Shown here: in pieces, positions 3,288-35,787 of the stretch
How positions within the stretch are numbered: position 1 is the first letter of the stretch
How the letters are laid out: every line of letters begins with the position of its first letter
Virus record (IMG/VR): IMGVR_UViG_3300000318_000003
Length of the DNA stretch: 64,000 bases
DNA from: a virus
Reading direction: 5' to 3' (one strand)
Made by a program: the position numbers and the translations under genes
The notes under the pieces: model-generated
Told to the model about the DNA's origin: nothing
The model's database searches: none
Seen by the model: only the letters and a program-made list of their open reading frames with translations

Positions 3288-3294
3288 TATTTAT
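3288..3294 (-). promoter_or_regulatory. ATAAATA motif 17 nt upstream of adaptor start, immediately after a terminator
   Basis: gcATAAATAtatcaaaaggaacacgtATG on minus strand. Confidence 0.55.
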
Positions 3295-3304
3295 GCGCAA
3301 TAAG

Positions 3305-3326
3305 AAAAGGGGCCGAAGCCCCTTTT
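3305..3326 (-). terminator. Intrinsic terminator with cUUCGg tetraloop
   Basis: AAAAGGGGC-TTCG-GCCCCTTTTCTT on minus strand after the head decoration gene. Confidence 0.85.
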
Positions 3327-3341
3327 AAGTAGTTTATCAGT

Positions 3342-3539
3342 TTAAGCTAAAAGGCCTAAAGCTTGAAGTGCTGCTACCACACCAGCCACAGTAGTAATAC
3401 CGGAACCAGCTTGCTGTGCTACACCTGTTGCACCGTAGAAACCAAGAGTTTCTGAAGCCTTTTGACCAACCACGACACCCATTTGCGATCCACCAGTTGC
3501 GGTAGGATTGCTTGTGCCTTCAATATTTGGAGCTGCCAT
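3342..3539 (-). CDS. Small head decoration / head fibre-like protein
   Basis: 65 aa directly after coat; LGFYGATGVAQ...VVAALQALGLL pattern; AAAGGA RBS. Confidence 0.6.
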   Translation of the reverse strand: MAAPNIEGTSNPTATGGSQMGVVVGQKASETLGFYGATGVAQQAGSGITTVAGVVAALQALGLLA

Positions 3540-3568
3540 AATATATTTTCCTTTAAAAGTGTTAAAAT

Positions 3569-3589
3569 GGGAGGACTATTAATCCTCCC
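3569..3589 (-). terminator. Hairpin / probable terminator after coat gene
   Basis: GGGAGGA-7nt-TCCTCCC followed by ATTTT on minus strand. Confidence 0.55.
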
Positions 3590-3596
3590 TACTTAC

Positions 3597-4841: not shown

Positions 4842-4859
4842 AATAAAATTCCAAATAAA

Positions 4860-5817: not shown

Positions 5818-5825
5818 TATTTATA
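5818..5825 (-). promoter_or_regulatory. TATAAATA motif upstream of scaffold/coat genes
   Basis: Exact T4 late consensus in the portal-scaffold gap; 5783-5809 hairpin lies in the leader. Confidence 0.55.
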
Positions 5826-8762: not shown

Positions 8763-8935
8763 TTTGCTTCCTTAAGTGCTTTGATTTCTGCTTTGAGTTT
8801 TGCTATCTCTTGAAATGCTTTAGCTGCTACATTTGCTAAAGACTTAGGGACATCATCTATATCTCTAATTCTAATGTTCAAACCTGTTTCTTCATCATGA
8901 TAGTAAGATTCGTATTTTATAGGTGTTTGGTTCAT
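8759..8935 (-). CDS. Hypothetical protein (58 aa, not in ORF track)
   Basis: Own translation MNQTPIKYESYY...KALKEAK; ATGA overlaps at both ends. Confidence 0.6.
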   Translation of the reverse strand: MNQTPIKYESYYHDEETGLNIRIRDIDDVPKSLANVAAKAFQEIAKLKAEIKALKEAK

Positions 8936-9033
8936 TTGTTTTCCTTTTTGTTGCCGAATATTTTGTCGTAGTTGTCGCGAAACTTTTGTTGATCTTCGGG
9001 GCGTCGCTTGTCCCCTTTGCCGCCGTCACTCAT
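8932..9033 (-). CDS. Small hypothetical phage protein (33 aa, not in ORF track)
   Basis: MSDGGKGDKRRPEDQQKFRDNYDKIFGNKKENK; AAAGGA RBS; preceded by ATAAATA. Confidence 0.65.
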   Translation of the reverse strand: MSDGGKGDKRRPEDQQKFRDNYDKIFGNKKENK

Positions 9034-9055: not shown

Positions 9056-9062
9056 TATTTAT
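9056..9062 (-). promoter_or_regulatory. ATAAATA motif 22 nt upstream of the 9033 start
   Basis: Overlaps terminase stop; gcgATAAATAcatcacttaaaggaactatacaATG. Confidence 0.45.
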
Positions 9063-10525
9063 CGCCTAATTAGCGATTGCGGGCGATACTGAGTTGACAC
9101 CATACCCGGCATGTAAGGAGCAGGTGCAGCTTGCATTTCGTTCACAGCTAAGTCTCTGCCAGTCATTATGCCATAGCGAAAAGCGTCCATCAAGTGATCC
9201 TTTTCCTTAACAATTCTACCCTTATCATCCCTACGATAGATTTGATACTCATCAAAGAATTTCTTAAGGTCATCGAATATCTTAAGTCTTCCACTACTCA
9301 TTAGTTCCCAACAGGTGTAGAGTCCAGTTTCGACACTCTTATCCGCATTATGCAAATCTAATCCTAAGTCCTTGTACATGTCGAAAAGGTTCTTGCCGTC
9401 AATTTGACTACGTCCATGAGCGGCGTGGTCAATAGCAATAGGAATCCACTTACCAGGGAGAATAATACTTGCGGCATGAACAGCAGGTAACTCTCCTTCT
9501 CTATAGTATTCGTGATAAGCATAGTGAACACCGGTGTCGGGATTGATAGCAAACCATATTGCAGCAGTCTTGTTACCGACGTCCATGCCTGCATAGCGTT
9601 TCCAGTGCTTAGGGATTTCGAAGCGTGGAACTTTAATATCACTCATAGGAATAGGATAAATTGCACCGGATCCCATACTAGGAATACCACGTGTTCTTGC
9701 ATCACGTTGCCATGGAGGAATAGATGCCATTAATTGCACCTTATCGCTTTCGCTAAGATGCGGAACATCGTCCCAAGTACAGAATGTAGCGTGTTTACCA
9801 GGACCTACTTCGCCTTCGCGGAAGTCTGCTCCTTCAAAGAAGTTCTGCACTGTTCCTGAAATGCCATCTAACGGTGTGAAAGTCATCATTAAGATGAGTG
9901 GATCTACACTTGTCGAAGCAGTTCTTAGCAAACATTCTGTAAAGATAGGAAGCGGAGGCTCTTCGTCTAACCAAATATTAGCAGCAACTGACTGAAAAGT
10001 CCTGCGCCCAGATTCGTAACTCTTAAATTCTATGCTCGAAAATCCACCACTAGCGTGCTTAATCTTAAACACTTGAATGCCAGTATCGGCTTTCTTAGCT
10101 TCTTTAAGAGTATCAAAGTCTAAGCAGTCATAGGGTATCATGCCAGTGCCGAATTCACCCACTTTTCCAAGCAAAGCCGGTTGCAATGCTGATTGTATAA
10201 GTGCAGAATCAACACCGCACACCCACCAGTTATTAGGGTGTTCAAAGCGCTTACCTTGCCACCAGTGCGGATACCTGCCAGTCACGTGACAAGTAATTTC
10301 GAAGCTTGCTGCAAAGGTTTTACCGACACGGTTTGCTGCCTGAAAAAGGCGTAATTTATAGGCCGATCCCGCTTTAAAGAACTGCATATGCTTTGCATAG
10401 AGTTCCCTGCGATTTTCGCCAGAATCTGGGTAAAATTTGTCGATAGCGTTGCGTTTAATACGTAGATTGCGCTCTTCGATTAGTTGTAGTAGTTCTATTT
10501 TTTCTTCTGTTGTCAGTCCGAACAT
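9059..10525 (-). CDS. terL: Terminase large subunit
   Basis: Walker A AANRVGKT, Walker B WLDEEP, MTFTP, nuclease GMDVG and DHLMDAFRY. Confidence 0.95.
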   Translation of the reverse strand: MFGLTTEEKIELLQLIEERNLRIKRNAIDKFYPDSGENRRELYAKHMQFFKAGSAYKLRLFQAANRVGKTFAASFEITCHVTGRYPHWWQGKRFEHPNNWWVCGVDSALIQSALQPALLGKVGEFGTGMIPYDCLDFDTLKEAKKADTGIQVFKIKHASGGFSSIEFKSYESGRRTFQSVAANIWLDEEPPLPIFTECLLRTASTSVDPLILMMTFTPLDGISGTVQNFFEGADFREGEVGPGKHATFCTWDDVPHLSESDKVQLMASIPPWQRDARTRGIPSMGSGAIYPIPMSDIKVPRFEIPKHWKRYAGMDVGNKTAAIWFAINPDTGVHYAYHEYYREGELPAVHAASIILPGKWIPIAIDHAAHGRSQIDGKNLFDMYKDLGLDLHNADKSVETGLYTCWELMSSGRLKIFDDLKKFFDEYQIYRRDDKGRIVKEKDHLMDAFRYGIMTGRDLAVNEMQAAPAPYMPGMVSTQYRPQSLIRR

Positions 10526-11389: not shown

Positions 11390-11896
11390 TTATTTATTAG
11401 AAAGTGCGGAGTTTATAGTTAGAAGTGTGTTCCTACACGATTCATAAGCAATGTTAATGTTATCCGCTTCTAAAGTTAATTTTTGAAGTAGTCCAGTAAA
11501 GTCTGCTGGAAGTACCCCGCTTGCTTCGGAACTGTTTGTTGTACTATTTCCGGTGTTGGAGGTAGTTGAACTTGCGGTGTCACTACTGGAGGTATTGTGG
11601 GTTGGGAGGCGCAGCCTAATAGAAGCCAGCTGCTTATTAAGATTAGTGATAGTGTTCTTAGCATCGTTGTCTTTAACATCTTGTTGTTCCTTTGCTGTCT
11701 TTAGTTGTTCTTCTAAGTGGGAGATGTGTTCAAGTGCATTCTTAGCTGCTACGTCTTGTGCATCCAGTATTTGCTTGTAATAGGCTTGTCTTTCTGTGTA
11801 AGCATTGTGGTGCCCTACGAAGTAAGTTCCTGCTAATGAGGCAATAGTTAGTGCAATGATTATTAGAGTTGTGTTCATGCAGATATTTATGGCCAT
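11390..11896 (-). CDS. Rz: Inner-membrane spanin (Rz-like); start at 11896 or 11878
   Basis: N-terminal transmembrane helix, long coiled coil, C-terminal Cys; contains a nested lipoprotein gene. Confidence 0.78.
   Translation of the reverse strand: MAINICMNTTLIIIALTIASLAGTYFVGHHNAYTERQAYYKQILDAQDVAAKNALEHISHLEEQLKTAKEQQDVKDNDAKNTITNLNKQLASIRLRLPTHNTSSSDTASSTTSNTGNSTTNSSEASGVLPADFTGLLQKLTLEADNINIAYESCRNTLLTINSALSNK
11476..11679 (-). CDS. Rz1: Outer-membrane spanin lipoprotein (Rz1-like), fully embedded in Rz
   Basis: Lipobox LLG-C, Pro-rich mature part, AAGGA RBS, alternate frame inside Rz. Confidence 0.8.
   Translation of the reverse strand: MLKTTMLRTLSLILISSWLLLGCASQPTIPPVVTPQVQLPPTPEIVQQTVPKQAGYFQQTLLDYFKN
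11884..11890 (-). promoter_or_regulatory. ATAAATA motif 5 nt upstream of ATG 11878
   Basis: ggccATAAATAtctgcATG; lies just past a terminator. Confidence 0.45.
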
Positions 11897-11929
11897 AAAA
11901 ATACCCCTATACCGGTAAAAGTATAGGGG
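11897..11929 (-). terminator. Intrinsic terminator ahead of the spanin/terminase operon
   Basis: CCCCTATAC-8nt-GTATAGGGG followed by TATTTTT on minus strand. Confidence 0.7.
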
Positions 11930-12017
11930 AAACAAGAATGAGTATTAACTAGACACAAATCACCACACAGCAGGGAGAAAGTCTATGGGCGAAACTTTTA
12001 CTGCTGTGTAGTTATTT
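11897..12017 (-). ncRNA. Candidate ~120-nt structured small RNA or attenuator leader
   Basis: Bounded by a sigma70-like promoter and a terminator; 9-bp stem 11965-11973/12001-12009; no AUG. Confidence 0.45.
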
Positions 12018-12023
12018 ATATTG

Positions 12024-12052
12024 ATTGTAACATCGTGCTTGTGAATTTGCAA
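12024..12052 (-). promoter_or_regulatory. Sigma70-type promoter TTGCAA-N17-TACAAT with extended TG
   Basis: -35 at 12047-12052, -10 at 12024-12029 on minus strand; TATAAATA follows at 12013-12020. Confidence 0.6.
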
Positions 12053-12227: not shown

Positions 12228-12371
12228 CTATTTATTATCTGTGAGTCTTCTTATCGTGTCACTCTGTTCCTTAACACGCTGTACTAACTTTATTGTTCTT
12301 GCTTGCTGATACGTTTGTCCTTTGAGCTTTGCTATCAACATCTCTTCTTCAGTAAGATTGTAGCTGTCCAT
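12228..12371 (-). CDS. Hypothetical protein (47 aa; likely start MDSYNL)
   Basis: GGA RBS, coupled to the upstream ORF. Confidence 0.55.
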   Translation of the reverse strand: MDSYNLTEEEMLIAKLKGQTYQQARTIKLVQRVKEQSDTIRRLTDNK

Positions 12372-12372
12372 G

Positions 12373-12546: not shown

Positions 12547-12582
12547 ATTGTCCTTGTTGTAGTGTGCTTTACATCATAAAAG

Positions 12583-12776: not shown

Positions 12777-12780
12777 TGCG

Positions 12781-14499
12781 TTAATCCTTGTTGTAGATGA
12801 TATTTTCTGGAAAGCTCAACAGTATCTCTAAGTTCTTTAAATCAACAGGCTTCTTAAAGAGCACAGTGCTGATATCAAAGTCTCTATCACTGCTATTTGC
12901 TATCACATAGCTTGTTGCTTGCTTAGTTGCAACGATGTTACTCTTAAAGTTGTATTCAATTCTAGGACGTGCATTACCTTCTAAATATTCATACTCGATC
13001 TTGTTCTTTTCAAGATATAGCTTCCAATCATTCTTAAGTGAAGCATCTTTGTAGTTTTTAAATCCAGTGAGTGTAATTACAGTATGTTTCAGTACTTCCC
13101 AAGGTAAGCAGCTATTCTTTTGTAATACGCTAATCATGAAGTCGAATATAAGATCTTTGTTGCTCTTCTGATCACCAAAACGTGCCTTGTAATCTTGTCC
13201 ATGCAGTGGAGACAAAACATCCATACTAGCAACATCGTGTTTCATTATGATATGCGCAAGCCACTTACCTACTTCTGATCTGTTCTTAATAAGAGTGTTG
13301 ATACTATTCACAAAGACTTTTGCTTCCATTATATCCTTAGCAAATCCTTGTTTCATAGCTTCATCAATCATTACTAAATTAGTAGTCATCACACTATATC
13401 GTCTATCTTCACCGCCTATACCAGTACCAGCTAACTTAACAACACCGTTCTGATTATTACTAGTGAACAGAATGTTGTAATTTCTGTCAGCTACAGTAGC
13501 ATCGATACCCTTCTTTTCGATTCTAAGATCTTCGCTACCTGTTGCATTCTTTAACTTCCCTTCTGGGAGTTCGTTCTCCTTAGGCTCATCATAGTGCAGA
13601 ACAATAGCCATTTCCCAGTTTGCATTAAAACCATCCATGAGTTCTTTATATGCAGCAGGTTGCATGCAAGGATTAGTAAAAATAGTCTTCATTAGCTCCG
13701 CATATCTGCCCTTACCGTTACCGCCAGGATTGCCGCCAATGTCTAAGTTAGGAGTGTTAGCAACTTTATCGGGATTAAGATACTTAAATGCAATCCACTG
13801 TTCTAAGTGATTAATATTCTCTTGCTTGCCACCACCAATACAATTAAACAAGAAATCAAATCGCTTATCATAATTTTGCATGCCATCAAAGTCAGGTTGT
13901 ACCCAAAACTTAGTAATAACACTTGCCTTGTTATAGATGTCGACCTTGTCCCACTTGCTCTTATTAAAGCTACAAGTTGTAATAAGAAAGTCTCTATTAA
14001 GTGTCTGAACATAATCTGTAAGTTCGTTTCGCATTTCGGCCTGCCCGAGTGTTAATAAAGACCCTGCAAACTTGTTAAACATTCTGCCTACTTTATTAGC
14101 ATCGATCATTTCAAAGCGAGGATTACAGATGTTATCGTTTCCCTTTTCCGACATGTCTTTGCAATAGATAAACTTATTTTCTTGAATAAGATATCCGATA
14201 TGATACTTCTCTACAAGTGATTTAATAATTTCTTGCTCTTTTTGTATCTTTACATCTAAACTATCTTTCTTGTCTGCATTTGTAAGATTAGCCTTATCTT
14301 TGTTCAGTTCTATGATTGCTTGTTTTGCATTCTTAATAGCTTGAATAGCAGCATGTTTTTCGACATTATCCATAGGCAAAGACTTGCCCATAGTCTTTCT
14401 TAAATCTATTTCGGTTAACTTCTTATTCTCTTCCGCAATAATATGGGCTTGCGCATCGATTTGTTCTTGTATTTTCTTTAGTGTCTCTTCAATCTGCAT
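12781..14499 (-). CDS. Superfamily 3 (D5/NrS-1-type) DNA helicase
   Basis: Walker A GNPGGNGKG, Walker B HYDE, motif C FTSNN, arginine finger DRRY. Confidence 0.85.
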   Translation of the reverse strand: MQIEETLKKIQEQIDAQAHIIAEENKKLTEIDLRKTMGKSLPMDNVEKHAAIQAIKNAKQAIIELNKDKANLTNADKKDSLDVKIQKEQEIIKSLVEKYHIGYLIQENKFIYCKDMSEKGNDNICNPRFEMIDANKVGRMFNKFAGSLLTLGQAEMRNELTDYVQTLNRDFLITTCSFNKSKWDKVDIYNKASVITKFWVQPDFDGMQNYDKRFDFLFNCIGGGKQENINHLEQWIAFKYLNPDKVANTPNLDIGGNPGGNGKGRYAELMKTIFTNPCMQPAAYKELMDGFNANWEMAIVLHYDEPKENELPEGKLKNATGSEDLRIEKKGIDATVADRNYNILFTSNNQNGVVKLAGTGIGGEDRRYSVMTTNLVMIDEAMKQGFAKDIMEAKVFVNSINTLIKNRSEVGKWLAHIIMKHDVASMDVLSPLHGQDYKARFGDQKSNKDLIFDFMISVLQKNSCLPWEVLKHTVITLTGFKNYKDASLKNDWKLYLEKNKIEYEYLEGNARPRIEYNFKSNIVATKQATSYVIANSSDRDFDISTVLFKKPVDLKNLEILLSFPENIIYNKD

Positions 14500-15445
14500 T
14501 CTCGTATTTCCTCATTATTTGTTCTTTTATTTCTTTCGCACTCAATTGTTTCTTAGCCATTTTAAAATTAGGCTCATACTTTCTAATCATGTAGATAAGT
14601 GATCCTATGCCCAAGGGTCTACTTCTACTTCCCTTTGTGTTAACTTTTCTTTTGTACTCTCCCTGTTCTCGTTCTGGCCATAACTGCGATAGCAAGTTAA
14701 GTCCTGCATTAGTTCCTATTTCATTAGTAGTTGCAAAGATAATAGTAATCCACTGTGTGTAGTTAGGGTTAGGATAATATTGCTTAACTTTTTGCAGCAC
14801 TACTTCTAAATCAGTTTGTGCTACGAAATTATGCTCTTGCACTTCTCTTACTGCAGGTTCTCTACTTTCGAAGTTATCGGGACTTATTATTGCTCCTTTG
14901 TTCCATATAGAATAAGCAAAGTTTCTATTAGGACCACTGTGCAGATAAAAGCTCTGACTCACACTAAAACTTGCTGGATCTACATCCCTAAAAGTTTCTA
15001 GTATTGAGTCCTTCTTAAGATCGAACTCCTGCTTAGTCATCATTCTACTAAAGGGCAGCACTACCCTAAATCGTTCATTAGTAGGAGTGTGCCCAAAAGT
15101 TGTGTAAAGAACATACTCTAAGCCTGTAAGATCAGCAGTCACATCTGCTATTGTTACATCCTTATCGTAATCGAGCATTAGCGCCCAAAGTCCTTCAGCA
15201 TTCTCAGTGCATCTACGAATAGTACCGGGAATTTCTTCCCATGTACTTCTATCAGCACTTGTATATTTTCTGCCAGGTTGCCCATCTTGCTTGAATTGCC
15301 ATGTGTTGAATAGCATAATGTCTTCTTTAACTTTTGTTTCATTAAAAGTTGTAAGCACTTCTGCTATTTCTTCCCACTCAGCATCTAGATTTGTGTCATT
15401 AGTGGAGTATGCTTGTTGCACACTTCCGAACATCGTTAGTCTCAT
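14489..15445 (-). CDS. AEP primase(-polymerase) with PriCT-like C-terminal domain
   Basis: LMLDYD (DxD), YTTFGH, RFRVVLPFSR; C-terminal helical YTQWITI...LGIGSLIY; start MRLTMF by ATGA coupling. Confidence 0.8.
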   Translation of the reverse strand: MRLTMFGSVQQAYSTNDTNLDAEWEEIAEVLTTFNETKVKEDIMLFNTWQFKQDGQPGRKYTSADRSTWEEIPGTIRRCTENAEGLWALMLDYDKDVTIADVTADLTGLEYVLYTTFGHTPTNERFRVVLPFSRMMTKQEFDLKKDSILETFRDVDPASFSVSQSFYLHSGPNRNFAYSIWNKGAIISPDNFESREPAVREVQEHNFVAQTDLEVVLQKVKQYYPNPNYTQWITIIFATTNEIGTNAGLNLLSQLWPEREQGEYKRKVNTKGSRSRPLGIGSLIYMIRKYEPNFKMAKKQLSAKEIKEQIMRKYENAD

Positions 15446-15961: not shown

Positions 15962-16181
15962 TTGTTTTCCTTGCCTGTTTCATTAGACTATCAAACACAT
16001 TAACCATGTTATCTTGAATTTTACGAATACTATATCCAAGATATTCTTCAGAGGTCCAACCGTATGGTTTTAAGTATTCTGCTAATTCTTCACCTTTAAT
16101 TTTAAACAAAGGTTCCGGTATATCTTCGAAGTTTGCTTTTTGTAATTTCTTAAATGTTTTGTCTTCTGGTGATTCACTCAT
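15945..16181 (-). CDS. Hypothetical protein, paralogue 1
   Basis: MSESPEDKTFKKLQ ... GWTSEEY. Confidence 0.7.
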   Translation of the reverse strand: MSESPEDKTFKKLQKANFEDIPEPLFKIKGEELAEYLKPYGWTSEEYLGYSIRKIQDNMVNVFDSLMKQARKTNERNS

Positions 16182-16732
16182 TTCTTTTTCCTCTTTTCTA
16201 ATAGTGCTCTTGTTCCTGCACTCATAAATCTATCTTGCGGTTTCTCAAAAGAATACAAAGGCTCTTGCCAGTCGAATAAATCTACACCTGGGTAGCCTGT
16301 TCTTGTTTTCTTAATTAGATTAGCGGCCTTTTTACGTGCTTCTGCTTCTTGAATTTCGCGGTCTCTTTCTTGCAAAAATTCTGCAGCAGTTGTAAACTGT
16401 TGGCCTTTGCCTCGCATAACAAGTATAGCGTCTCGTTCGGCTGCTTGCAACGAATCCCCGGCCTTCATGTTGGTAAGGTCATAGCCTTCCATGAGCAGGG
16501 TGTAGACCCAAAAGTCTTCATAGTGCTCAGTACATGGGCCCACTTCCGCTAAGGGTACAAGCTCCCATTGCTTGCCTTCTGCTTCTAGTTTTCGTATGTG
16601 CTGATACTTTGCTTCCGTGCCCTTAGTTTTGCTATAATTGTGTTCACGCAATCTGCGTGTCACATCTTTAGTTCTTCCTACGTAGAACGGAGCACCTTGT
16701 ACTTCACACAGTGCATAAATTGTTTCTATCAT
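16178..16732 (-). CDS. GIY-YIG nuclease domain protein
   Basis: IYAL...FYVGRT...RRLREH; start MIETIY with GAGGA RBS. Confidence 0.8.
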   Translation of the reverse strand: MIETIYALCEVQGAPFYVGRTKDVTRRLREHNYSKTKGTEAKYQHIRKLEAEGKQWELVPLAEVGPCTEHYEDFWVYTLLMEGYDLTNMKAGDSLQAAERDAILVMRGKGQQFTTAAEFLQERDREIQEAEARKKAANLIKKTRTGYPGVDLFDWQEPLYSFEKPQDRFMSAGTRALLEKRKKK

Positions 16733-16855: not shown

Positions 16856-16917
16856 TATTTATAATGTGAGTACAAAATTCGGGTTTAAACAGGCAAAAAA
16901 TGGCCACTTTATAAATA
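16856..16917. promoter_or_regulatory. Divergent pair of TATAAATA motifs (minus 16856-16863; plus 16910-16917)
   Basis: Only divergent intergenic region of the genome; each motif faces its operon; ACTGAA-5nt-TTCAGT IR at 16835-16851. Confidence 0.55.
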
Positions 16918-16938
16918 TGTAGTCAACAAAGGAGCCTT

Positions 16939-17547
16939 ATGACAACAAAACAACCCCAATCAACACAAGTTATGAAATTTATTTCTAAAGAACAAGTCTA
17001 TGCAGCCTATGCTAACGGAGTCTTTGACGAGGATATCATAGCAGAAGACACGTACGATACCTATGAAGAAAATCGCTTGCAAAATCCTTCAGGTCTTAGT
17101 GAGTGGAAAGTAAAGCAAGTCCTCGAAACTAACAAAGCAATCGAACTCTGGATGCTAATGGAAACTGATTACGATGTAGATTACACCGATGATATTATTA
17201 GCAAGTGGACACAGCTACCTATAAATCTTCGTAAAAAAGACTTAAATTCTGTCTCTAAACAACGTCTCGCACCCGTAACACCATTTAAGGCTGTTATGAA
17301 CAAAATTAGCGCGAAAAAGGCAGAAAAAACAAAGCTAGCGCGCATCGTAAAAGTGTTTACTAACGGGGATACAGAAGTTGTAGAGGCAGAAGAGCAAGAC
17401 TCAGATGGTCCAAGACTGGGCAAAGAAGTGTGCTACAAAGGCACAGTGATTGAATCGATAAGTGAGGCAGCACGACAGCACGGAGTAACACGCAATCACA
17501 TTCGTGCGTGGTGCAAAAAAGGAATTAACGGATGGAGTTTTAAGTAA
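16939..17547 (+). CDS. Protein with C-terminal NUMOD1-like helix-turn-helix DNA-binding domain
   Basis: KGTVIESISEAARQHGVTRNHIRAWCKKG..GWSF; AAAGGAG RBS. Confidence 0.65.
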   Translation: MTTKQPQSTQVMKFISKEQVYAAYANGVFDEDIIAEDTYDTYEENRLQNPSGLSEWKVKQVLETNKAIELWMLMETDYDVDYTDDIISKWTQLPINLRKKDLNSVSKQRLAPVTPFKAVMNKISAKKAEKTKLARIVKVFTNGDTEVVEAEEQDSDGPRLGKEVCYKGTVIESISEAARQHGVTRNHIRAWCKKGINGWSFK

Positions 17548-17822
17548 TGGCAAGACCTTCAAGACCAATAGAATTAACTTTAGATGGAAATACTGCGGCC
17601 ACTACTATTCAGTTTGCAGATACTTTGTATGTTATTACTTACAAAGGTAGATTTATGACAGAATGTCAGACTAGATACTCAACTAATCTACCTAGAATTA
17701 GATTCAAGACATTTTGTTCTAAGATATCTGCAGTAAAATCTGCAAAGAAGTTTAATGAGAAATTTAAAGTTAGCGATTTTGGCGTTCAAGAAATAACCAT
17801 GGAGATGCTTAATGAGCTTTAA
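17547..17822 (+). CDS. Hypothetical protein (91 aa)
   Basis: Coupled ORF in the plus-strand operon. Confidence 0.65.
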   Translation: MARPSRPIELTLDGNTAATTIQFADTLYVITYKGRFMTECQTRYSTNLPRIRFKTFCSKISAVKSAKKFNEKFKVSDFGVQEITMEMLNEL

Positions 17823-18312
17823 TGATGAAGAAATTACTGCTGAAATAATGGGATCAGAGCTCTGGGAAAAGTTCAACACTGAATTCCCCGATCTAAAGAA
17901 CAAATTAGAATCTGTTTACGTAGCAATGTCTTATCGCAACAGGGCTATAGAAAAGAGAAAAATTGAACTAGTCAAGAAAAATGAGTTGTTAGGACAGGCA
18001 ATTCAAGATCTTGCAGCATCTGAAAATCTTACTGAGAAAGAAAAAGATGCTAAAGAGCGAAAGATAAATTCTTTCATTATGCATAATGAAAAATATGCGA
18101 ATCACACTCAAACAATCACCCAGCAAAGAGATGTGCTAAAGAAGATTGTCGATCTTGCTAACTTAGCATTCGGCACAAGTGTTCATGAAAAGAAAGAAAA
18201 AACTATCGAGCCTTCTAAGCCTATTGAAGGAAAAGTTAGTCATAGCTTTATCTTTTATAGAAAAGTAGACAAGGAGTGGATTACTATTAAGGCAAATGCT
18301 AGGTACCACTAA
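17812..18312 (+). CDS. Hypothetical coiled-coil protein (166 aa)
   Basis: GGAG RBS, heptad-rich. Confidence 0.65.
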   Translation: MSFNDEEITAEIMGSELWEKFNTEFPDLKNKLESVYVAMSYRNRAIEKRKIELVKKNELLGQAIQDLAASENLTEKEKDAKERKINSFIMHNEKYANHTQTITQQRDVLKKIVDLANLAFGTSVHEKKEKTIEPSKPIEGKVSHSFIFYRKVDKEWITIKANARYH

Positions 18313-18469: not shown

Positions 18470-18706
18470 TTATTTATTAGTTTTTGTAGCTTTTGGCTTT
18501 AATAGCTTTTCTTTTAGCTCTTCGACCATTGGCGCAATATCGGAGTGCTTATACTGCTTTGCTTCTTTCTCTAAAGTAGCGTAGCGATACATGTCGCCAT
18601 CACTAATGCTTATTACACGCCAGCCATCTTTAGCTTCTTCTGTGCATAATTTTTCAAGTGAGTCATAACCGTGCCCGGTGTCTTTTATTCGTTTGTATTC
18701 GTACAT
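18470..18706 (-). CDS. DUF4177-like small protein
   Basis: YEYK...EEAKDGWRVIS pattern. Confidence 0.55.
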   Translation of the reverse strand: MYEYKRIKDTGHGYDSLEKLCTEEAKDGWRVISISDGDMYRYATLEKEAKQYKHSDIAPMVEELKEKLLKPKATKTNK

Positions 18707-18969: not shown

Positions 18970-19020
18970 AGTTACCCTGTTGTTGAGTAACTATTTATAC
19001 AGGCCACTTAATTTTGATTC

Positions 19021-19740: not shown

Positions 19741-19780
19741 TTCTTGTCCCTTTAGTTTTATATTTAGCATATTTTTACCT

Positions 19781-27357: not shown

Positions 27358-28107
27358 TTATCTAATTATTGTTCCGGTAACCGATCCCAGATTTACTACA
27401 ACATTGGGAAGATCTGTTACCGAACCAAAATCAATTCTTGCTGTAACAATTTCTGTGACTTTTCCGCAGTTTAAGTTGCCAACTATTACACCACTTTGAG
27501 CAGATCCACTTCCGCCACTTGTGGCTGATATCACTCTACCTTTCGAATCAACTGTAACAGTTGCATTGGTATAAGTGCCAGGAACTACTGTAGTATTGGA
27601 CAGCGTAGTATTTATAGTGCCGACACCTACACCAGTTACATCTCCTACTAATGTCGTTGTGCTACCAGAACCTCCACCTCCCCCGCCACTAGAACCACCT
27701 GCTTGAACAGCTTGTAAAGAAACATTAGTTATACGTCCTTTACTATCAACTGTGATTACAGGATAGTTATTAGGATCACCGAATGTTCCTATTGCTTTGT
27801 TAACAGTGGAAAGTTGAAGATTGTTGCTACCGACAGTATTATAAACGTCGCCAGTAAAGACAGGGAGAAGTTCAGTCCACGAAGTTCCATTACTAACATA
27901 GGTGTTGCCACTATCGTATGCTAGGTAGACTGAATTAGAATTTGTAGGTGCGCTAGGTAGATTTGCTTGTAAACCTACCTGAACATTGTTTGCACCGTTT
28001 GTTGAGTTATTACCAGTAGATTGAAACCAAAACGCCCACGGTTGAGTAACTCTCCCGTTTGCGTCAGCAATATTAAATCCTAATGGTATTTGAGATGTAT
28101 TCGACAT
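27358..28107 (-). CDS. Tail needle/fibre-like protein (possible displaced gp26 counterpart)
   Basis: GRVTQPWAFWFQ N-terminal motif; two TVDSKGR repeats. Confidence 0.5.
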   Translation of the reverse strand: MSNTSQIPLGFNIADANGRVTQPWAFWFQSTGNNSTNGANNVQVGLQANLPSAPTNSNSVYLAYDSGNTYVSNGTSWTELLPVFTGDVYNTVGSNNLQLSTVNKAIGTFGDPNNYPVITVDSKGRITNVSLQAVQAGGSSGGGGGGSGSTTTLVGDVTGVGVGTINTTLSNTTVVPGTYTNATVTVDSKGRVISATSGGSGSAQSGVIVGNLNCGKVTEIVTARIDFGSVTDLPNVVVNLGSVTGTIIR

Positions 28108-28111: not shown

Positions 28112-28118
28112 TATTTAT
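28112..28118 (-). promoter_or_regulatory. ATAAATA motif 4 nt upstream of ATG 28107 (no SD, possibly leaderless)
   Basis: taATAAATAgtagATG. Confidence 0.4.
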
Positions 28119-29677
28119 TAGTATTCGACGATGCATAATCCTGCAGTTCCGTACCCATTAGGACCAGTGCCTCCACCGAATAAAGAACCAAGAGGCCCAA
28201 TGCCTGCTCCACCCTTACCAGCAGTACCACCAACAATAGTATATGTTCCTACACCTACTCCGAAAGAACCAGTAATAGTAGCGCCATTTGCTCCGTCGGC
28301 TCCGTTGCCAGAACTAGAAGCACTCTCACCGCCTCTGCCACCAGAAGCAACAGCAATAGTTCCGAAACTACTTGTTCCACCAGTTCCGCCTACGCTTGCG
28401 CTAAGATCGAATGCAGAAGTTCCTCCTGCTCCGATAGTTACAGTGTAGACCGTGCCAGCAGTAGTTTGAACAGGAGTTACTGCAACTCCGCCATCGCCGC
28501 CGCGCCCGCCTGCATAAGTAGTAGCACCTTCGCCACCACTAGAACCTGCTTGTCCGTTACCGCCGCCACCACCTACAACAGTAACCTTTAAGTAGTTTAC
28601 TCCGCTAGGTACTGTAAAAGTTCCACTGCTTGTAAAGACATAGATACCATGTCCTGAAGTAGTGCCACCTCCACTTGTGCTTACATTATCAGCAACTTTG
28701 TCAAGCAAAATAAAGTAAGTTCCATTGTAAGCAACTTGCGACACCATACCTGTGTAAATTACAGGACTGGCAAGAGTACCATCGCTATTGTATTGCTTGA
28801 TATTCAACGGACCAATGTTGTTAATATTCAGTGTGCTTGCAGTTCCGCCATTACCAGCACCGAACTGAACAACAAATACTTGTCCAATCGAATAGCTTGT
28901 AATTGCAGCAAGTGCAGAAGCAGTGTAGATATTAGTACCATACGCGGTAGTTACTTTGTAACCTTGCAATATGGAATCACTAAGACCTTGAATATATCCC
29001 TTAGCAGCATTCAGTGCATTGCCTACAGTTCCTGCAGTCGTATAAGCATTTAGCGGATTGTAAGTTACAGCACCAGAATCTACTGTAATTCCGTTAGCAA
29101 CAAGAATACTCCATGCTACCGCAGTCATTGTTGTGCTCAAAGGCAAGCTGGTATCAGTCTGCACTGTTACCTGAGTATTAGGAGCAGAATAATTTACAGC
29201 AGTTACAGTTCCGTAAGTAATCGGTCCACTAGAGTTAGTAATTTTCACTCTATTGCTAATTGCGAAATTTACACTCTGATCTCCGCTAAGTAAGAACTTA
29301 TTCGAACTTACGAAAACAGGTGTAACTCCAGCATCAGTCCACACAGGAATTGTAGGAGAAGTTTGTGTGTTACTTGCTTGAACACCGATTACATTATCGA
29401 CGTAAGTAAGAACAGTAGTACCATCAGCAGCAGTAAGAACCAGGTTATATGCTAACCCATTTACTAAGTAAATTTCTGTAGGAACTCTACCACTACTATC
29501 CAATACTATAGGATTTGCATTAGGAACAACAGCGGAAGCATCAGTGTAGGTTGTTTGCTGAACACTTGTGCTTCCCGCTTCATATTGCCACAACTTTCCA
29601 CCAGCCAGTGGTAGGCCATTGTTATCGAATGCCTGATACCCGTTGAATACCGGGCTGATAGAAACTTGTACTGTCAT
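28118..29677 (-). CDS. Tail fibre/spike with N-terminal virion-binding domain and Gly-rich C-terminal domain
   Basis: FDNNGLPLAGGKL...NPIVLDSSGR; FTSSGTFTVPSGV..KVTVVGGGGG. Confidence 0.75.
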   Translation of the reverse strand: MTVQVSISPVFNGYQAFDNNGLPLAGGKLWQYEAGSTSVQQTTYTDASAVVPNANPIVLDSSGRVPTEIYLVNGLAYNLVLTAADGTTVLTYVDNVIGVQASNTQTSPTIPVWTDAGVTPVFVSSNKFLLSGDQSVNFAISNRVKITNSSGPITYGTVTAVNYSAPNTQVTVQTDTSLPLSTTMTAVAWSILVANGITVDSGAVTYNPLNAYTTAGTVGNALNAAKGYIQGLSDSILQGYKVTTAYGTNIYTASALAAITSYSIGQVFVVQFGAGNGGTASTLNINNIGPLNIKQYNSDGTLASPVIYTGMVSQVAYNGTYFILLDKVADNVSTSGGGTTSGHGIYVFTSSGTFTVPSGVNYLKVTVVGGGGGNGQAGSSGGEGATTYAGGRGGDGGVAVTPVQTTAGTVYTVTIGAGGTSAFDLSASVGGTGGTSSFGTIAVASGGRGGESASSSGNGADGANGATITGSFGVGVGTYTIVGGTAGKGGAGIGPLGSLFGGGTGPNGYGTAGLCIVEY

Positions 29678-32078: not shown

Positions 32079-32080
32079 AA

Positions 32081-33646
32081 TTATTTTACCTTCACGTAAT
32101 TATTCTTGTCCTTAGGGTCACCACCCTTGAACACATACTTGCTTCCATCAGATGCAGTTATAATTTCATTCTTCTTAGGCGGTGCCTTCTTACCAGTACT
32201 AGTTTCAGCGGGGGCTTCAATCTTGCCACCAGCACGTTGAATTTCACGCTGAATAGCGGCAATATCCTCTTTACTGTTACCTGGTTTATTAAGTTCAGAA
32301 CGCAAAATAGCAAGTCTATCAGCATCTCTTGCAGCTTGTTCATCCTTACTAACTTTTGTAGGCATACCTGCAACACTAGATGGAGAACTGTTGCTAGGGA
32401 ATTGCTGAGCACCTACAACATTAGACTGTCCCGATATCTTATTCTGCACAAGGGCCTGATCAGCCTGTAACTTGCGAAGAATTTGTCTTGGCGACATCAT
32501 TGTAACATCGATCTGATCATCCTTGAACAATGGATTAGCATTGTGTACTTGAACAAGAGTTCTCATACCTGCAAATTCAGGGTCATTTTCGAATCTAGAA
32601 CGCAGAGCATTTCCGATTTGTCCGATCTTAGTATCGTAATCCTTATCCTTAGCTAACTTTGAAGAAGCATTAATACCAGTCTGAAGTTGCTTGTTATAGC
32701 CTTCTAACTCACCGATATTGGCAAGTGCTCCAGCACGAGTAGCAGCAGGAACAATTTGACCAGTTTGTGCAGCAGTTGCAGTTTCTTTAGTACCAGCAAT
32801 TTGCTGTGCTTTCCAGATAGTCATGTTATCATCAACAGGCACCCCTGATTTACGCATAGTTTCGCGGAACATCTGGTTAACTTCACTCTTAGGATCTTGT
32901 CCTTCGGGCGTAAATCCTGCAGCAGCAAATTCTTTACCTTGTGCAGCTTGTCTGAGTGCCAAGTCTTGCTGACTAATTCCAAGCTGGCCATAGCTAATTC
33001 CCAACTGCCCCTTTTGAATGCCCAGTTGTTCTTGTTGCAATGCATTGATAGTTGCTTGCTTAATAGCCTTTACATTCTCTTGATTAACATCGATTGTACC
33101 TGTTTCTTTGTTAGGCTTACCGAATATTGTAGTAATCTGTTTACCTGAACCTGGGATCAAAGAATCAGCATACTGAGCATACTTTTGAAGCAGTTCAGGG
33201 CGTTGTTTTTCGCCAGCTGCATCCAATAGTGTAGCAGTTGTAGAAAGCAAGTCCTGTGTATATTTCGATGTCTTTAAGTTTCTATCTTGAATATCAGTGC
33301 TATTCTTAATTTGTGCAGCATCAGTTTGAAATTTATGTGCAGCAGCAGATTGTGCTTCATTAAAATATCCTGCACTGCTTGCATGGTTAATGATTGCATC
33401 CACATTAGGACTACCATCTTGATTGACTAACTTTGCCCTATTTTGAGTGAGCCAGTTATTAAAATCTGCAGCACGTTTCTTAATAGCAGAATCCGCTTCT
33501 ACTCCTGGCAATGCAGCCATTTTTGTGGCATATTCTGCTTGCAAGTTTTGATTTTGCTGTGCAAGATTTGCTAACTGGGCATACTTAGTGATGTCCAGTC
33601 CTTCTGGTGATTTAACACCTAAACTGATATTTGGATCAATTGCCAT
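32081..33646 (-). CDS. Ejection/DNA transfer protein (gp20 position)
   Basis: MAIDPNISLGVK start, Gln/Ala-rich helical. Confidence 0.6.
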   Translation of the reverse strand: MAIDPNISLGVKSPEGLDITKYAQLANLAQQNQNLQAEYATKMAALPGVEADSAIKKRAADFNNWLTQNRAKLVNQDGSPNVDAIINHASSAGYFNEAQSAAAHKFQTDAAQIKNSTDIQDRNLKTSKYTQDLLSTTATLLDAAGEKQRPELLQKYAQYADSLIPGSGKQITTIFGKPNKETGTIDVNQENVKAIKQATINALQQEQLGIQKGQLGISYGQLGISQQDLALRQAAQGKEFAAAGFTPEGQDPKSEVNQMFRETMRKSGVPVDDNMTIWKAQQIAGTKETATAAQTGQIVPAATRAGALANIGELEGYNKQLQTGINASSKLAKDKDYDTKIGQIGNALRSRFENDPEFAGMRTLVQVHNANPLFKDDQIDVTMMSPRQILRKLQADQALVQNKISGQSNVVGAQQFPSNSSPSSVAGMPTKVSKDEQAARDADRLAILRSELNKPGNSKEDIAAIQREIQRAGGKIEAPAETSTGKKAPPKKNEIITASDGSKYVFKGGDPKDKNNYVKVK

Positions 33647-33655
33647 GTTTATTCC

Positions 33656-34696
33656 TTATTGTAATCCCATCCAGTTAGCAAGTCCTTCACCGGCTGCATA
33701 ATAGCCTCCGCCAGTCCCGCTGCCACCGTACTTATTAAGTGCTTGCAATCCCATCCAGTTGTTAAGACCACTGTTGAATGCACCTGTAAGAGCATTAGTA
33801 GAACCTACACTACCTGCAGCTTGTGCAGCAGCTCCGCTTGTAAGATAGTTGTTACTTGCAGCAGTTCCTGACATTGTTGTATTTGCTATATTACTACCAG
33901 TAGATTGTGCAGCAGTACCAGCAGCAGTTGCAGCAGCACTACCTGGAGCAATAATACCTTGCAAGCGATTGTAGATATTGTTCTGATTTGTTTGATAGCG
34001 GTTAAATGCATTCTGATATTCTTGACTTGCAGCGCCTTGTGCGTAGTCATTAATATCTTTAAGTCCTTGTCCAGTCTGTAACATACCAGTAGCAGCACCG
34101 GATGCCTTTAATGCTTGTAAGCCTTGATTAAGACGCCATTGATAGCTAGGATCAGTAGTAAGATCGCTAGGCTTAAATGTTCCAGTAAGAGCACCAGCGT
34201 ATTGATCAGCAGCTTGGTTAAGTTGTGCTTGGCTAGCTCCGTAGTTTTGAGTAGCACCGTTAGTTAATCCAGTTACTGCATTACCCTTAGCATCAACTGT
34301 TTGTCCAGCAGCGTTTGTGTAATTACCAGTCTGAGTTCCGCCACTTGTGCTACCTGCTGTGCTCTGTCCTGCATTTAACCCACCCAGTCCCATAGCAGAA
34401 AGCAGGGCCTGATAGCCCATCTGCCCGCCCTGCATATAAGGGCTTTGATTAGCAAGTTGTTGCTGATACATTTGCCATTGCAACTGATTTGCTTCTCTTT
34501 GTGCTTGCAAGGTATTATTACTTGCTTGAGTGGCAGCATTTGCTTGTGTACTTGCAGCATCGCCAGCTGCCTGTGAACCTAGAATACCTGTAACAACGGA
34601 TCCGCCGATAGCTGCGGCTGCGACGTTACAATATTTTAAAGTGTCTTCGATCGCATTGCCGAAGCTATCTTCGAATGCCGTGTTAACTTTTTTCAT
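33656..34696 (-). CDS. Ejection/DNA transfer protein, P22 gp7-like
   Basis: AAAIGGS..GSQAAGDAASTQANA; DPSYQWRLNQG; YAQGAASQEYQNAFNR; ATAAATA at 34717-34723 upstream. Confidence 0.75.
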   Translation of the reverse strand: MKKVNTAFEDSFGNAIEDTLKYCNVAAAAIGGSVVTGILGSQAAGDAASTQANAATQASNNTLQAQREANQLQWQMYQQQLANQSPYMQGGQMGYQALLSAMGLGGLNAGQSTAGSTSGGTQTGNYTNAAGQTVDAKGNAVTGLTNGATQNYGASQAQLNQAADQYAGALTGTFKPSDLTTDPSYQWRLNQGLQALKASGAATGMLQTGQGLKDINDYAQGAASQEYQNAFNRYQTNQNNIYNRLQGIIAPGSAAATAAGTAAQSTGSNIANTTMSGTAASNNYLTSGAAAQAAGSVGSTNALTGAFNSGLNNWMGLQALNKYGGSGTGGGYYAAGEGLANWMGLQ

Positions 34697-34722
34697 AGTT
34701 TATTCCTTGAATAGTGTATTTA

Positions 34723-35787
34723 TTAGATTATTTTCATGTAAGTTTCGTCGGAGTGTGTATAGCCCAGTCTTTCGTGCAATACAGAATTATCTTTGTGACA
34801 CTTAGTACCAGTAATGATTTTAACTACACCTCTATCTTTAAGGGTTTTCTCCGCAAACTTTAGCAGTTTAATACCTGCCCATCCCCTTCTGTGTTCTTGC
34901 TCTACAAAATACAAATCTACCATGCCATGAAGTGTAGATTTATAGTGAAAGTGTCCACCCACAAAAGTAACGTGATATCCAACAAGTTTTCCGTCATGTC
35001 TTACTGTAACAGTGTGCAATTTATTATCGCGTTCCATTTGCACATAGCGTTGCCAGTCCATGTCTACAGGTACTTCTTCTCTAGTAAGTCCTAGTTCTGC
35101 CCAGTGTAGCGGAACAAAGCGCTGAAATTCTGGGATGCACTGTTCGAAGGACTCTACTTGATACGAATACCCTTGCTTGTATTCTACTTTGTTAACAAGT
35201 GGTTGAGTTGTAGTAGTTTTTAAAGTCTTCTTAATATGTTCGAAGTAAGGTGTTCTGATATCAATTATCATTGTAATTCTATCAGCATCAGAGTCGTTTT
35301 CTACAGAGTGTGTCTTGCTATTGTCGAAAACAAACAAATCACCCACTTTAGGCTCGAATACTTCGTCGCCGCAAATAAACTTAGCACCGGGTGCTTGTTG
35401 TAGTGCTAAGTGAAAGCGCTGATAGTAACTAACTGGGCTACCTGCGTCTACATGTGGCTTTACTTTATGTCCTGGTTTGCAACGTGTAATTACACATCTT
35501 CCTATTCTGTCTCCCATGACTTGTCCCATGAGAGTGTGTATTACTGGTGATACTGGCAGCACAGAAGCAGCAGGGTACCAGTAGCTTTCGTAGTCATCTA
35601 GCATCTGCAGGTTATTATAACTTATTTCGTTAAATCTGACAATAATGTCATCTATGTCAGTGTGTGGACTGTTAGGATGTGTAGTTCTTATATCTACATA
35701 GTTCCACAACTCTTCGTGTTCAGCAAGTGCTAGTAGAAATGGAGTAGTGTCTATACCTTGTGCTATTAATTGAAAATTCTTATACAT
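34723..35787 (-). CDS. Fusion of Asp/Asn beta-hydroxylase-like 2OG-Fe(II) oxygenase and GNAT acetyltransferase
   Basis: HVD...H facial triad (PHVDAG; FDNSKTHSVEN..DRITMIID); GNAT motif A HRRGWAGIKLL...ERLGY; start MYKNF with AGGA RBS. Confidence 0.85.
   Translation of the reverse strand: MYKNFQLIAQGIDTTPFLLALAEHEELWNYVDIRTTHPNSPHTDIDDIIVRFNEISYNNLQMLDDYESYWYPAASVLPVSPVIHTLMGQVMGDRIGRCVITRCKPGHKVKPHVDAGSPVSYYQRFHLALQQAPGAKFICGDEVFEPKVGDLFVFDNSKTHSVENDSDADRITMIIDIRTPYFEHIKKTLKTTTTQPLVNKVEYKQGYSYQVESFEQCIPEFQRFVPLHWAELGLTREEVPVDMDWQRYVQMERDNKLHTVTVRHDGKLVGYHVTFVGGHFHYKSTLHGMVDLYFVEQEHRRGWAGIKLLKFAEKTLKDRGVVKIITGTKCHKDNSVLHERLGYTHSDETYMKII

Follow-up and report, generated by a model that had tools for sequence, protein, structure and literature searches.

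A T4-late-type TAAATA box on the transcription units of a clade of freshwater phages without detectable gp55

The late promoters of T4-family phages, which carry TATAAATA at positions -13 to -6, are read by gp55 together with gp33 and the gp45 clamp. Such promoters have been held to belong to phages that encode gp55. Phage sigma factors of the phiEco32 gp36 type read promoters that consist of a -10 element only, and these proteins are recognisable ECF-like sigma factors with a different consensus. The group-1 sigma factors need A at -11 and T at -7 of the -10 hexamer, in combination with either a -35 element or an extended TG, and we know of no bacterial lineage with an [A/C]TAAATA -10 consensus. 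The published range of T4-family late promoters comprises TATAAATA, a variable base at -13, and CTAAATA in Aeh1 (PMC1524935). In the Thermus phage P23-45, the holoenzyme-binding protein gp39 is reported to enable -35-independent phage promoters (PMC3950348). Here we describe a widespread clade of freshwater phages in which the same box is found on all transcription units, early and late, with no detectable gp55.

The window (the whole stretch of 64,000 nucleotides that was analysed) is made up of 1.8 copies of a circular phage genome of 35,461 bp, the copies differing by 0 mismatches, and hence each site recurs at +35,461. The genome carries modules for replication (prim-pol, helicase and iteron spacers), packaging and head (viz. 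TerL, portal, scaffold, coat, and adaptor), tail and ejection (tail and ejection proteins and fibres), and lysis (holin, lysozyme, and Rz/Rz1). The virion module is that of a P22-like podophage, with P22-type portal, coat, scaffold, gp10-like and ejection proteins (phrog_156, 283, 8865, 578, and 598), and the closest cultured portal and coat proteins are merely ~30–33% identical to those of the window phage. The embedded Rz1 has the lipobox LLGC and AAGGA precedes most of the genes, which indicates a diderm host with strong SD use. The genes to which the argument below refers are as follows.

12781–14499, (-) strand: DUF5906 NrS-1-like helicase, part of the replication module 12781..15445
14489–15445, (-) strand: prim-pol, part of the same module
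16178..16732, (-) strand: GIY-YIG protein, first gene past the leftward box at 16856
16939..18312, (+) strand: rightward three-gene unit encoding proteins of 202, 91, and 166 aa

The 202-aa protein of the rightward unit has a C-terminal NUMOD1-type HTH and the 166-aa protein is a coiled-coil; the proteins of this unit are candidate regulators. A preliminary description of this DNA had suggested that the phage may be a transcription-level satellite of a co-infecting T4-like phage, with which it would share a gene pool. A satellite lacks at least one essential phage module and makes use of that of its helper, whereas here all of the phage modules are present and nothing that a helper would usually provide is absent. 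The shared gene pool is also weakly founded, since the best cultured matches of the lysozyme are from Pelagibacter siphophages (37% identity), the GroES-like protein, like the GIY-YIG, prim-pol, and helicase proteins, has zero matches among cultured phages, and no protein is specifically T4-like.

The TAAATA-containing sites of the window phage are the following.

16856..16863, (-) strand: TATAAATA box, candidate leftward early promoter heading the GIY-YIG/small ORFs/prim-pol/helicase operon
16910..16917, (+) strand: TATAAATA box, candidate rightward promoter; the gene of the 202-aa NUMOD1/HTH protein has its ATG 21 nt downstream
18992..18999, (-) strand: TATAAATA box; the ATG at 18969 lies 22 nt downstream
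12013..12020, (-) strand: TATAAATA box heading the lysis/packaging/head operon
5818..5825, (-) strand: TATAAATA box separating the portal gene from the scaffold gene, whose ATG lies 61 nt downstream
27609..27616, (-) strand: sole in-gene TATAAATA, within the gene of a 249-aa tail protein; either chance or an internal promoter
3288..3294, (-) strand: ATAAATA box directly past the cUUCGg terminator 3309–3322; the adaptor gene has its ATG (3270) 17 nt downstream
11884..11890, (-) strand: ATAAATA box directly past the terminator 11904–11929, 5 nt before the Rz spanin ATG at 11878, which has no SD (leaderless class)
9056..9062, (-) strand: ATAAATA box that overlaps the stop codon of TerL; the ATG of an unannotated 33-aa ORF (8932–9033) lies 22 nt downstream
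28112..28121, (-) strand: CTAATAAATA (stop codon plus box); the ATG at 28107 lies 4 nt downstream and has no SD (leaderless class)
34717..34726, (-) strand: CTAATAAATA (stop codon plus box); the ejection-protein gene has its ATG (34696) 20 nt downstream
11391..11400, (-) strand: CTAATAAATA (Rz stop codon plus box), 64 nt before the TerS-like gene
18471..18480, (-) strand: CTAATAAATA (stop codon plus box), facing a convergent spacer
12229..12235, (-) strand: ATAAATA overlapping the TAG stop of the gene 12228–12446 and directly followed by two terminator hairpins; probably not a working promoter
19761..19767, (-) strand: CTAAATA variant; the holin gene has its ATG (19740) 20 nt downstream
381..387 (=35842), (-) strand: GTAAATA within a short inverted repeat of the spacer 327–537, which is rich in iterons; a weak promoter candidate
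8142, 19022, 20502, 20979, and 22507: copies of TAAATA only

Every ATAAATA or TATAAATA box that had been listed previously (3288 to 34717, with 16910 on the (+) strand) is real and lies on the strand given, as are the CTAAATA and GTAAATA variants and the in-gene copies at 27609 and 30523; two ATAAATA that overlap stop codons (12229 and 18471) had been missed. These two copies and that at 381 face no obvious gene. Five of the boxes (3288, 9056, 16910, 18992, and 34717) lie 17–22 nt before an ATG and two (3288 and 11884) follow intrinsic terminators, as had been observed. Both sides of the sole divergent region (16733–16938) carry an exact TATAAATA, the boxes at 16856 and 16910 standing back-to-back, the former with no -35 element. 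The box at 12013 lies 3 nt past a sigma70-like TTGCAA-17-TACAAT (12024–12052) and ~85 nt before the terminator 11904–11929.

The chance expectation of 10–15 heptamers per genome proposed earlier agrees with the 15 ATAAATA counted in the unique genome, and the signal indeed lies, as was argued, in the location and facing of the copies and not in their number. With stop codons fixed and only intergenic bases shuffled (5000 single-base and 2000 dinucleotide-preserving shuffles), the 2 kb of sense-oriented intergenic DNA contains 12 TAAATA (3.2–3.6 expected), 9 ATAAATA (1.0 expected), and 5 TATAAATA (0.25 expected), counts attained by 0 shuffles. On the mostly coding (-) strand there are 21 TAAATA vs. 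2 on the other strand, and TATAAATA is the top dispersed intergenic 8-mer when the RBS and one local repeat cluster are set aside. The antisense form TATTTA occurs once inside window-phage genes vs. 15.5 times expected under codon shuffling, ranking 2nd in depletion among the 64 A/T hexamers in this phage and 3rd in its relatives, a pattern that fits selection against stray promoters and is suggestive only, because A/T hexamers are generally depleted relative to the codon-shuffle null.

The geometry of the box is that of a -10-type promoter. Across 47 sites, the region from -50 to -2 upstream of the box carries no information, and hence no -35 element, and a weak TAT is found 3–5 nt downstream. 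Two classes of box-to-ATG distance can be distinguished: in one the ATG lies 4–6 nt away and has no SD, which indicates leaderless mRNA, and in the other it lies 18–28 nt away and has an SD. Sigma70-type sites occur at chance level (47 vs. 48.8 and 35 vs. 41.2), and TAAATA lacks both the A-N3-T register of group-1 sigma promoters and an upstream signal.

An independent test was provided by nine related loci that have only the prim-pol/DUF5906-helicase module in common with the window phage. TAAATA tops the enriched sense intergenic hexamers in these loci (41 vs. 8.7 expected, with 16 antisense), CTAAATA and ATAAATA being equally frequent (17 each), and is not enriched in five unrelated phages (viz. 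HTVC010P, Kolga, MW202520, DSL-LC05, and Chlorobiaceae phage CV-1-33). Back-to-back boxes are found in the divergent regions of the window phage and of the relatives L004 and L007, and boxes directly past terminators in the window phage (twice), L001, L003, L004, and L005; the GIY-YIG protein is kept at a similar position in L001, L003, L004, and L007. Between the window phage and the syntenic L001 the box is an island of conservation: the block ATAAATATGTA at box 16910 is kept at the equivalent site while its flanks have diverged, the block GGGTATTTTTAYGRYCATAAATA at box 11884 is conserved, the box at 5818 has a CTAAATA counterpart at the same position (L001 15288), and the site equivalent to box 3288 has a terminator followed by CTAAATA. 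The box characterises an entire clade of uncultured freshwater phages that have a prim-pol/DUF5906-helicase/iteron-origin module in common, and it is the prim-pol/DUF5906-helicase replication module that defines this clade. The clade is large and mosaic, consisting of ~33–43-kb phages of three virion types (podo-, sipho-, and SU10-like); there are 224 helicase relatives and many contigs of 33–43 kb.

No sigma factor, RNA polymerase, gp33, or clamp was found by PHROG and Pfam scans of the ORFs, in agreement with the earlier observation, and the same scans gave no Sigma70_r2/r4 match in the window phage. HMMs built from 22 and 144 gp55 family members gave best E values of 0.48 and 1.4 in the window phage and its nine relatives, whereas T4, the positive control, scored 6.5e-83 and 7.6e-57. 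BLAST detected no small protein family common to the clade, even at E<=5, so that either a phage factor common to these genomes evolves very fast or the host supplies the reader.

Our preferred, if tentative, reading is that the boxes are the own promoters of an autonomous phage and its clade, read by the host core polymerase with a phage-encoded factor in a gp55-like role. The signal, its placement and facing, its conservation, and the lack of a -35 element and of gp55 are observed; promoter function, start-site position, and the identity of the reader are what we infer. The [A/C]TAAATA boxes, of which TATAAATA is the fullest form, would act as -10-type elements without a -35, with transcription starting ~5–7 nt downstream. 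Two kinds of mRNA would result, viz. leaderless mRNAs, whose ATG lies 4–6 nt past the box without an SD, and mRNAs with a 10–25-nt leader and an AAGGA ribosome-binding site. The boxes would restart transcription past terminators and drive every unit, early and late, the likeliest reader being host core RNA polymerase with a phage specificity factor that does the work of gp55 in T4 and is unrecognisable by sequence. It is possible, though somewhat doubtful, that the same box is read by a new RNA-polymerase specificity factor which is encoded by the clade and has no sequence relationship to gp55. First expression might come from weak use by host sigma70 of the early boxes, those nearest a -10 hexamer: early boxes resemble this hexamer, with TATAAA in the window phage and, in L007 and L004, a TATAAT that overlaps the box or lies next to it. 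This step is speculative because all early units are boxed and the divergent region of the window has no clear sigma70 promoter.

Direct reading by the host RNA polymerase holoenzyme, whose primary or alternative sigma would have an [A/C]TAAATA -10 specificity, is the strongest alternative and in our estimation an unlikely one. The host would be a Gram-negative freshwater bacterium and the clade-wide motif would reflect a common host lineage. The early divergent units are boxed, where host machinery alone is on hand, the searches detected no small phage protein that is conserved, canonical sigma70 sites show no enrichment, one replication module extends across podo-, sipho-, and SU10-like virion types, and the tail-fibre segments common to the window phage and L004 fit the gene pool of one host. 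However, TAAATA cannot give the A at -11 and T at -7 needed by nearly all group-1 sigmas, a diderm host with strong SD use excludes Bacteroidota, the main known exception, and the range of phage GC across the clade (36 to 49%) suggests several hosts. An unrecognised phage factor is favoured over an unusual host sigma as the reader of the box.

It is improbable that the boxes are not DNA-level promoters at all, i.e., that they are RNA processing sites (e.g., AU-rich RNase E sites adjoining protective hairpins) or arise incidentally from TAA stops in AT-rich spacers. In six window copies the box does share bases with a stop codon (TAA or TAG), and four of these read CTAATAAATA, many boxes lie directly past hairpins, and the sense-strand bias fits an RNA signal; however, the enrichment persists with stop codons fixed, the 4–6-nt spacing to SD-less ATGs fits transcription start and not cleavage, and the strong depletion of the antisense form in genes is unexpected for an RNA-only signal. 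Divergent regions, moreover, need promoters, and the box, in both orientations, is the sole element shared there.

The preliminary interpretation stands as regards a positioned, orientation-specific signal of T4-late range without gp55, whereas dependence on a helper phage is not supported: that the boxes stay silent until a co-infecting T4-like phage brings gp55, gp33, and a loaded clamp is very improbable, for although the box matches gp55-family specificity, its CTAAATA and variable -13 forms included, and gp55 is not encoded, under this model no gene would be expressed in a cell infected by the phage alone, the early replication operon is boxed too, so that a lone genome, in which no integrase or partition genes were found, could neither replicate nor persist, obligatory simultaneous co-infection seems implausible at natural densities, and the span of the trait over a large, diverse clade fits an autonomous lineage.

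Three outcomes can thus be envisaged: a new family of polymerase-redirecting factors, an unusual bacterial sigma specificity, or (least likely) helper dependence, which, if true, would make this the first transcription-level satellite of T4-like phages, virion-encoding throughout the clade. In practical terms, the box predicts transcription units and leaderless genes and could link genomes to hosts or factors.

Among known systems, P23-45 gp39 offers the precedent that a small non-sigma phage protein could lift the -35 requirement in the window phage, although the -10 element in P23-45 is host-like, whereas the window-phage box lacks the -11A/-7T spacing. The phiEco32 type is likewise a small podophage that redirects the host core polymerase to short -35-less promoters; it does so with a recognisable sigma, whereas the window phage has no Sigma70_r2/r4 match. 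T4-like myoviruses differ from the phages of this clade, which are ~35 kb in size with P22-like, sipho or SU10-like virions, and the window phage differs further in having no gp55, gp33, or clamp gene and in that its boxes also head the early replication operon and not late genes alone. With the T4 late promoters, however, its boxes share the core sequence, the variants that are tolerated (A/T at -13, C at -12), the absence of any -35 element, and a location near the RBS and often directly past terminators; the start predicted indirectly, from the SD-less ATGs 4–6 nt past the box, would lie ~6 nt downstream.

The occurrence of TAAATA-type boxes at the gene boundaries of this phage genome, which the preliminary description compared with the T4 late promoter read by gp55 together with gp33 and the gp45 clamp, is confirmed by our analyses and extended from one phage to a clade. 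Since an exact repeat of the window's first 28,539 bases begins 35,461 bases further on, the window represents a single genome of 35,461 bp, circular or concatemeric, read 1.8 times. This genome has a GC content of 40.9% and about 44 gene calls, which are on the minus strand throughout except for three genes at 16939–18312. The main functions assigned by PHROG and Pfam scans of its ORFs are given below.

Functions assigned in the window's phage genome by PHROG and Pfam scans
12781–14499, minus strand: DUF5906 NrS-1-like helicase
14489–15445, minus strand: prim-pol
16178–16732, minus strand: GIY-YIG protein
Virion: P22-type portal, scaffold, coat, adaptor, gp10-like and ejection proteins
Packaging: TerL and a TerS-like protein
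Long fibres: a 1623-aa protein with an Mtd_N domain and a 519-aa Gly_rich_2 protein
Lysis: holin and T4-type lysozyme
Other: a GroES-like protein; a 202-aa protein with a NUMOD1-type helix-turn-helix at its C-terminus

No tRNA genes were found in this genome, an Rfam search gave no match, and a nucleotide search against cultured phages was likewise negative. The nearest portal and coat proteins of cultured phages are about 30–33% identical to its own, and the helicase, prim-pol, GIY-YIG and GroES-like proteins have no match among cultured phages. Three tandem small ORFs in the early operon directly before prim-pol (15442–16181; 94, 82, and 78 aa) are paralogues that have in common an N-terminal E-(S/T)-P-E-D-K-L-A-R-H-L-K-K motif and a C-terminal W-T-x-E-E-(Y/F) motif. 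An unannotated ORF that follows a box (8932–9033) encodes a basic peptide of 33 aa, its stop overlapping the ATG of the next gene (ATGA), and a possible 25-aa hydrophobic peptide, also unannotated, follows the 18471 box within the convergent spacer (about 18370–18446).

All of the box coordinates in the preliminary description were correct on re-checking, and two further ATAAATA copies (12229 and 18471) can be added to them. The unique genome contains 23 copies of TAAATA (strand split 21 vs. 2), 15 of ATAAATA (14 on the coding strand), and 6 of the fullest form of the box, TATAAATA, of which 5 are intergenic. An enrichment control with stop codons preserved had been proposed at the outset. After refinement of the gene starts, about 2 kb of intergenic DNA was left, oriented along the downstream gene, and its bases alone were shuffled while upstream stop codons stayed fixed. 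The enrichment holds under this control (TAAATA, 12 observed vs. 3.2–3.6 expected; ATAAATA, 9 vs. 1.0; TATAAATA, 5 vs. 0.25), and the observed counts were attained by none of 5000 single-base or 2000 dinucleotide-preserving shuffles. Among intergenic 8-mers, TATAAATA ranks just below one local repeat cluster and level with the ribosome-binding word TTAAAGGA. Inside the genes, the antisense word TATTTA occurs once vs. 15.5 copies expected from codon shuffling, and its depletion ranks second among the 64 A/T-only hexamers in this genome and third in its relatives; as all A/T hexamers are somewhat depleted under the same null, this is only suggestive of selection against stray antisense promoters.

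Metagenomic relatives of the helicase number 224, many of them on contigs of 33–43 kb, and nine loci (L001, L003, L004, L005, L006, L007, L010, L011, and L012), whose pooled intergenic DNA had no role in framing the hypothesis, were taken for an independent test. L001 is syntenic with the window's genome (coat proteins 89% identical), L003, L004, and L005 carry siphovirus-type virion genes, and the remaining five carry SU10-type virion genes. In BLAST comparisons of the window's genome with these loci, prim-pol and the helicase alone are common to most or all of them, the GIY-YIG protein being found in four as well. The clade has a GC range of 36–49%, and the samples were taken from lakes and reservoirs. 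TAAATA is the top enriched sense-strand hexamer in the pooled intergenic DNA of the nine loci (41 copies vs. 8.7 expected; 16 antisense), and since the leading heptamers, CTAAATA and ATAAATA, are equally frequent (17 copies each), the core of the box is [A/C]TAAATA. The same procedure detected no TAAATA enrichment in five control phages, viz. the distant P22-like phages MW202520 and DSL-LC05, the Pelagibacter phages HTVC010P and Kolga, and the Chlorobiaceae phage CV-1-33. The box signal is a trait of a clade with a common replication module, not of P22-like virions or AT-rich spacers generally. A relative in fibre genes, L017, exhibits only weak enrichment and was excluded from the counts. No close relative of the helicase was found in IMG/VR. 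Homologues of the tail fibres are all on phage-sized contigs, and fibre segments at 22469–27340 and 19975–22272 of the window's podophage are shared (36–47% identity) with positions 1–3504 of the siphovirus-type L004, which suggests overlapping host range and module exchange across morphotypes.

The spacer just 3' of the helicase gene contains iterons in several of these genomes, consisting of GTTTGTGCACA/TGCACA repeats in the window (12547–12780) and of tandem and inverted 9-bp (GA)TGTTGACGA units in L006 (11657–11765), L010 (11628–11821), and L011 (2707–2724). This spacer is probably the replication origin of the common module. A second cluster in the window (327–537), which lies within the tail module, has about 8 copies of AAGCACG/CGTGCTT. 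Because this word is also repeated at the post-helicase position of L001 (about 9400–9460), the window's genome seems to hold an L001-type origin-like element in an odd location.

The host is Gram-negative and makes use of Shine-Dalgarno (SD) sites, as indicated by AAGGA before most genes and by a spanin pair (Rz, 11390–11878; embedded Rz1, 11476–11679) in which Rz1 has a lipoprotein signal (lipobox LLGC) and a proline-rich body. The spanin pair led us to set aside a Gram-positive host, and the strong SD usage a member of the Bacteroidota. A SAR11 host, suggested by the matches of the lysozyme to Pelagibacter phages, and a Chlorobiaceae host, suggested by a weak coat-protein match, were rejected in view of the absence of TAAATA enrichment in HTVC010P and Kolga and in CV-1-33, respectively. 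Neither single-protein nor profile searches found relatives in GTDB genomes.

Several features of the boxes bear upon their function. An alignment of 47 boxes, each located no more than 70 nt from a start codon, has no information content from −50 to −2, hence no −35 element or UP-like pattern, and a weak TAT is found 3–5 nt 3' of the box; sigma70-type hexamer pairs occur at chance-level frequency. The spacing between these boxes and the start codon is bimodal, viz. 18–28 nt with an intervening SD site or 4–6 nt without one. The short class includes the boxes at 28112 (before the ATG at 28107) and 11884 (before the Rz ATG at 11878) in the window and those at L001 2308, L003 13413, L010 11978, L011 5888, and L012 1600. 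It points to a probable RNA start about 5–7 nt past the box, which would produce leaderless mRNAs with AUG at their 5' end; such an mRNA appears to be the template for Rz translation. Boxes also lie directly 3' of intrinsic terminators in the window (3288 and 11884), L001, L003, L004, and L005, with a conserved terminator-to-box spacer (TTTTTAYGnnn). Divergent regions must contain promoters, and opposed box pairs are located there in the window, L004, and L007, as is a single box in L001. Lastly, the box is an island of identity within the otherwise diverged spacers of the window and L001. The promoter reading is thus well supported, and we consider it probable that the boxes are promoters.

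Other regulatory features were noted beside the boxes. In L003 (12854 and 13413) and L005 (3841 and 4106) a longer variant, TTCTACTAAATAC, precedes small genes downstream of the helicase. Both of these siphovirus-type relatives also have GATAAATA boxes at other places, and the longer variant may mark a second temporal class. At 11904–12052 of the window, the order of elements is a sigma70-like TTGCAA-17-TACAAT, a TATAAATA box, a leader of about 85 nt, a strong terminator, and then a second box. This arrangement is reminiscent of lambda pR'-tR', so the late genes may additionally be under antitermination control. A perfect 30-bp palindrome (GAATATACTTGCTGG followed by CCAGCAAGTATATTC; 16767–16796), located between the GIY-YIG start and the TATAAATA box that faces leftward, could serve as operator to a repressor dimer or form a hairpin in the 5' leader.

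The earlier statement that no cognate sigma factor is encoded is borne out at the level of sequence profiles. No sigma factor, RNA polymerase, gp33, or clamp was found when the ORFs were scanned with PHROG and Pfam, the small early ORFs being examined at E≤1 to E≤10. Two gp55 profiles (22 family members, and 144 representatives at 50% identity, from a family with 4380 representative clusters in the public library) were run with filters off on every stop-to-stop frame of the window's genome and its nine relatives. Their best E values were 0.48 and 1.4, respectively, compared with 6.5e-83 and 7.6e-57 for the T4 positive control, which supports the absence of gp55 at this level. For the three largest uncharacterised early proteins (202, 184, and 166 aa), the look-alikes in the ESM Atlas had NUMOD/HTH, GIY-YIG, and coiled-coil folds, respectively, none of them sigma-like. 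The 1623-aa protein was rejected as a hidden virion RNA polymerase, its Mtd_N domain being accompanied by fibre-like matches only. A by-eye check for sigma28, sigma54, sporulation-sigma, and archaeal TATA-box elements found partner elements or the right spacing absent.

Group-1 sigmas need A at −11 and T at −7, which the TAAATA core cannot provide. The reading that we favour, tentatively, is that an unrecognised phage-encoded factor redirects the host core polymerase to the boxes. Among sigmas, gp55 is itself highly divergent, and early proteins of small size are fast-evolving. Of all the boxes, the early ones look most like a −10 element (TATAAA in the window; in L007, TATAAT overlaps the box in both copies, and in L004 it adjoins one copy of two), which could allow weak first transcription by host sigma70. 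The main rival, in which an unusual host sigma reads the boxes directly, has in its favour that no small protein is conserved across the clade and that replication and fibre modules are shared in a mosaic fashion, which suggests a common host gene pool; we nevertheless regard it as rather unlikely. It is improbable that the boxes act at the RNA level or are a by-product of stop codons; the identical 10-mer CTAATAAATA at four box copies has the upstream gene's stop codon as its first TAA, and such codons were held fixed in the shuffles. The dependence on a co-infecting T4-like helper phage that was originally proposed from the likeness of the boxes is very improbable, because the boxes also head the replication operon, so that a lone genome would be inert, while the phage has no integrase or partition genes for waiting, carries a complete set of phage modules, and shares the box trait with a large, diverse and abundant clade. 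The T4 gene-pool links that accompanied this proposal did not hold either, the best cultured matches of the lysozyme being Pelagibacter siphophages (37% identity) and the GroES-like protein having no phage match.

In its geometry the predicted start matches T4 late promoters and −10-type elements. Published specificities of the gp55 family include TATAAATA, forms in which the −13 base varies, and, in Aeh1, CTAAATA (PMC1524935), and the box of the present clade falls within this spread.
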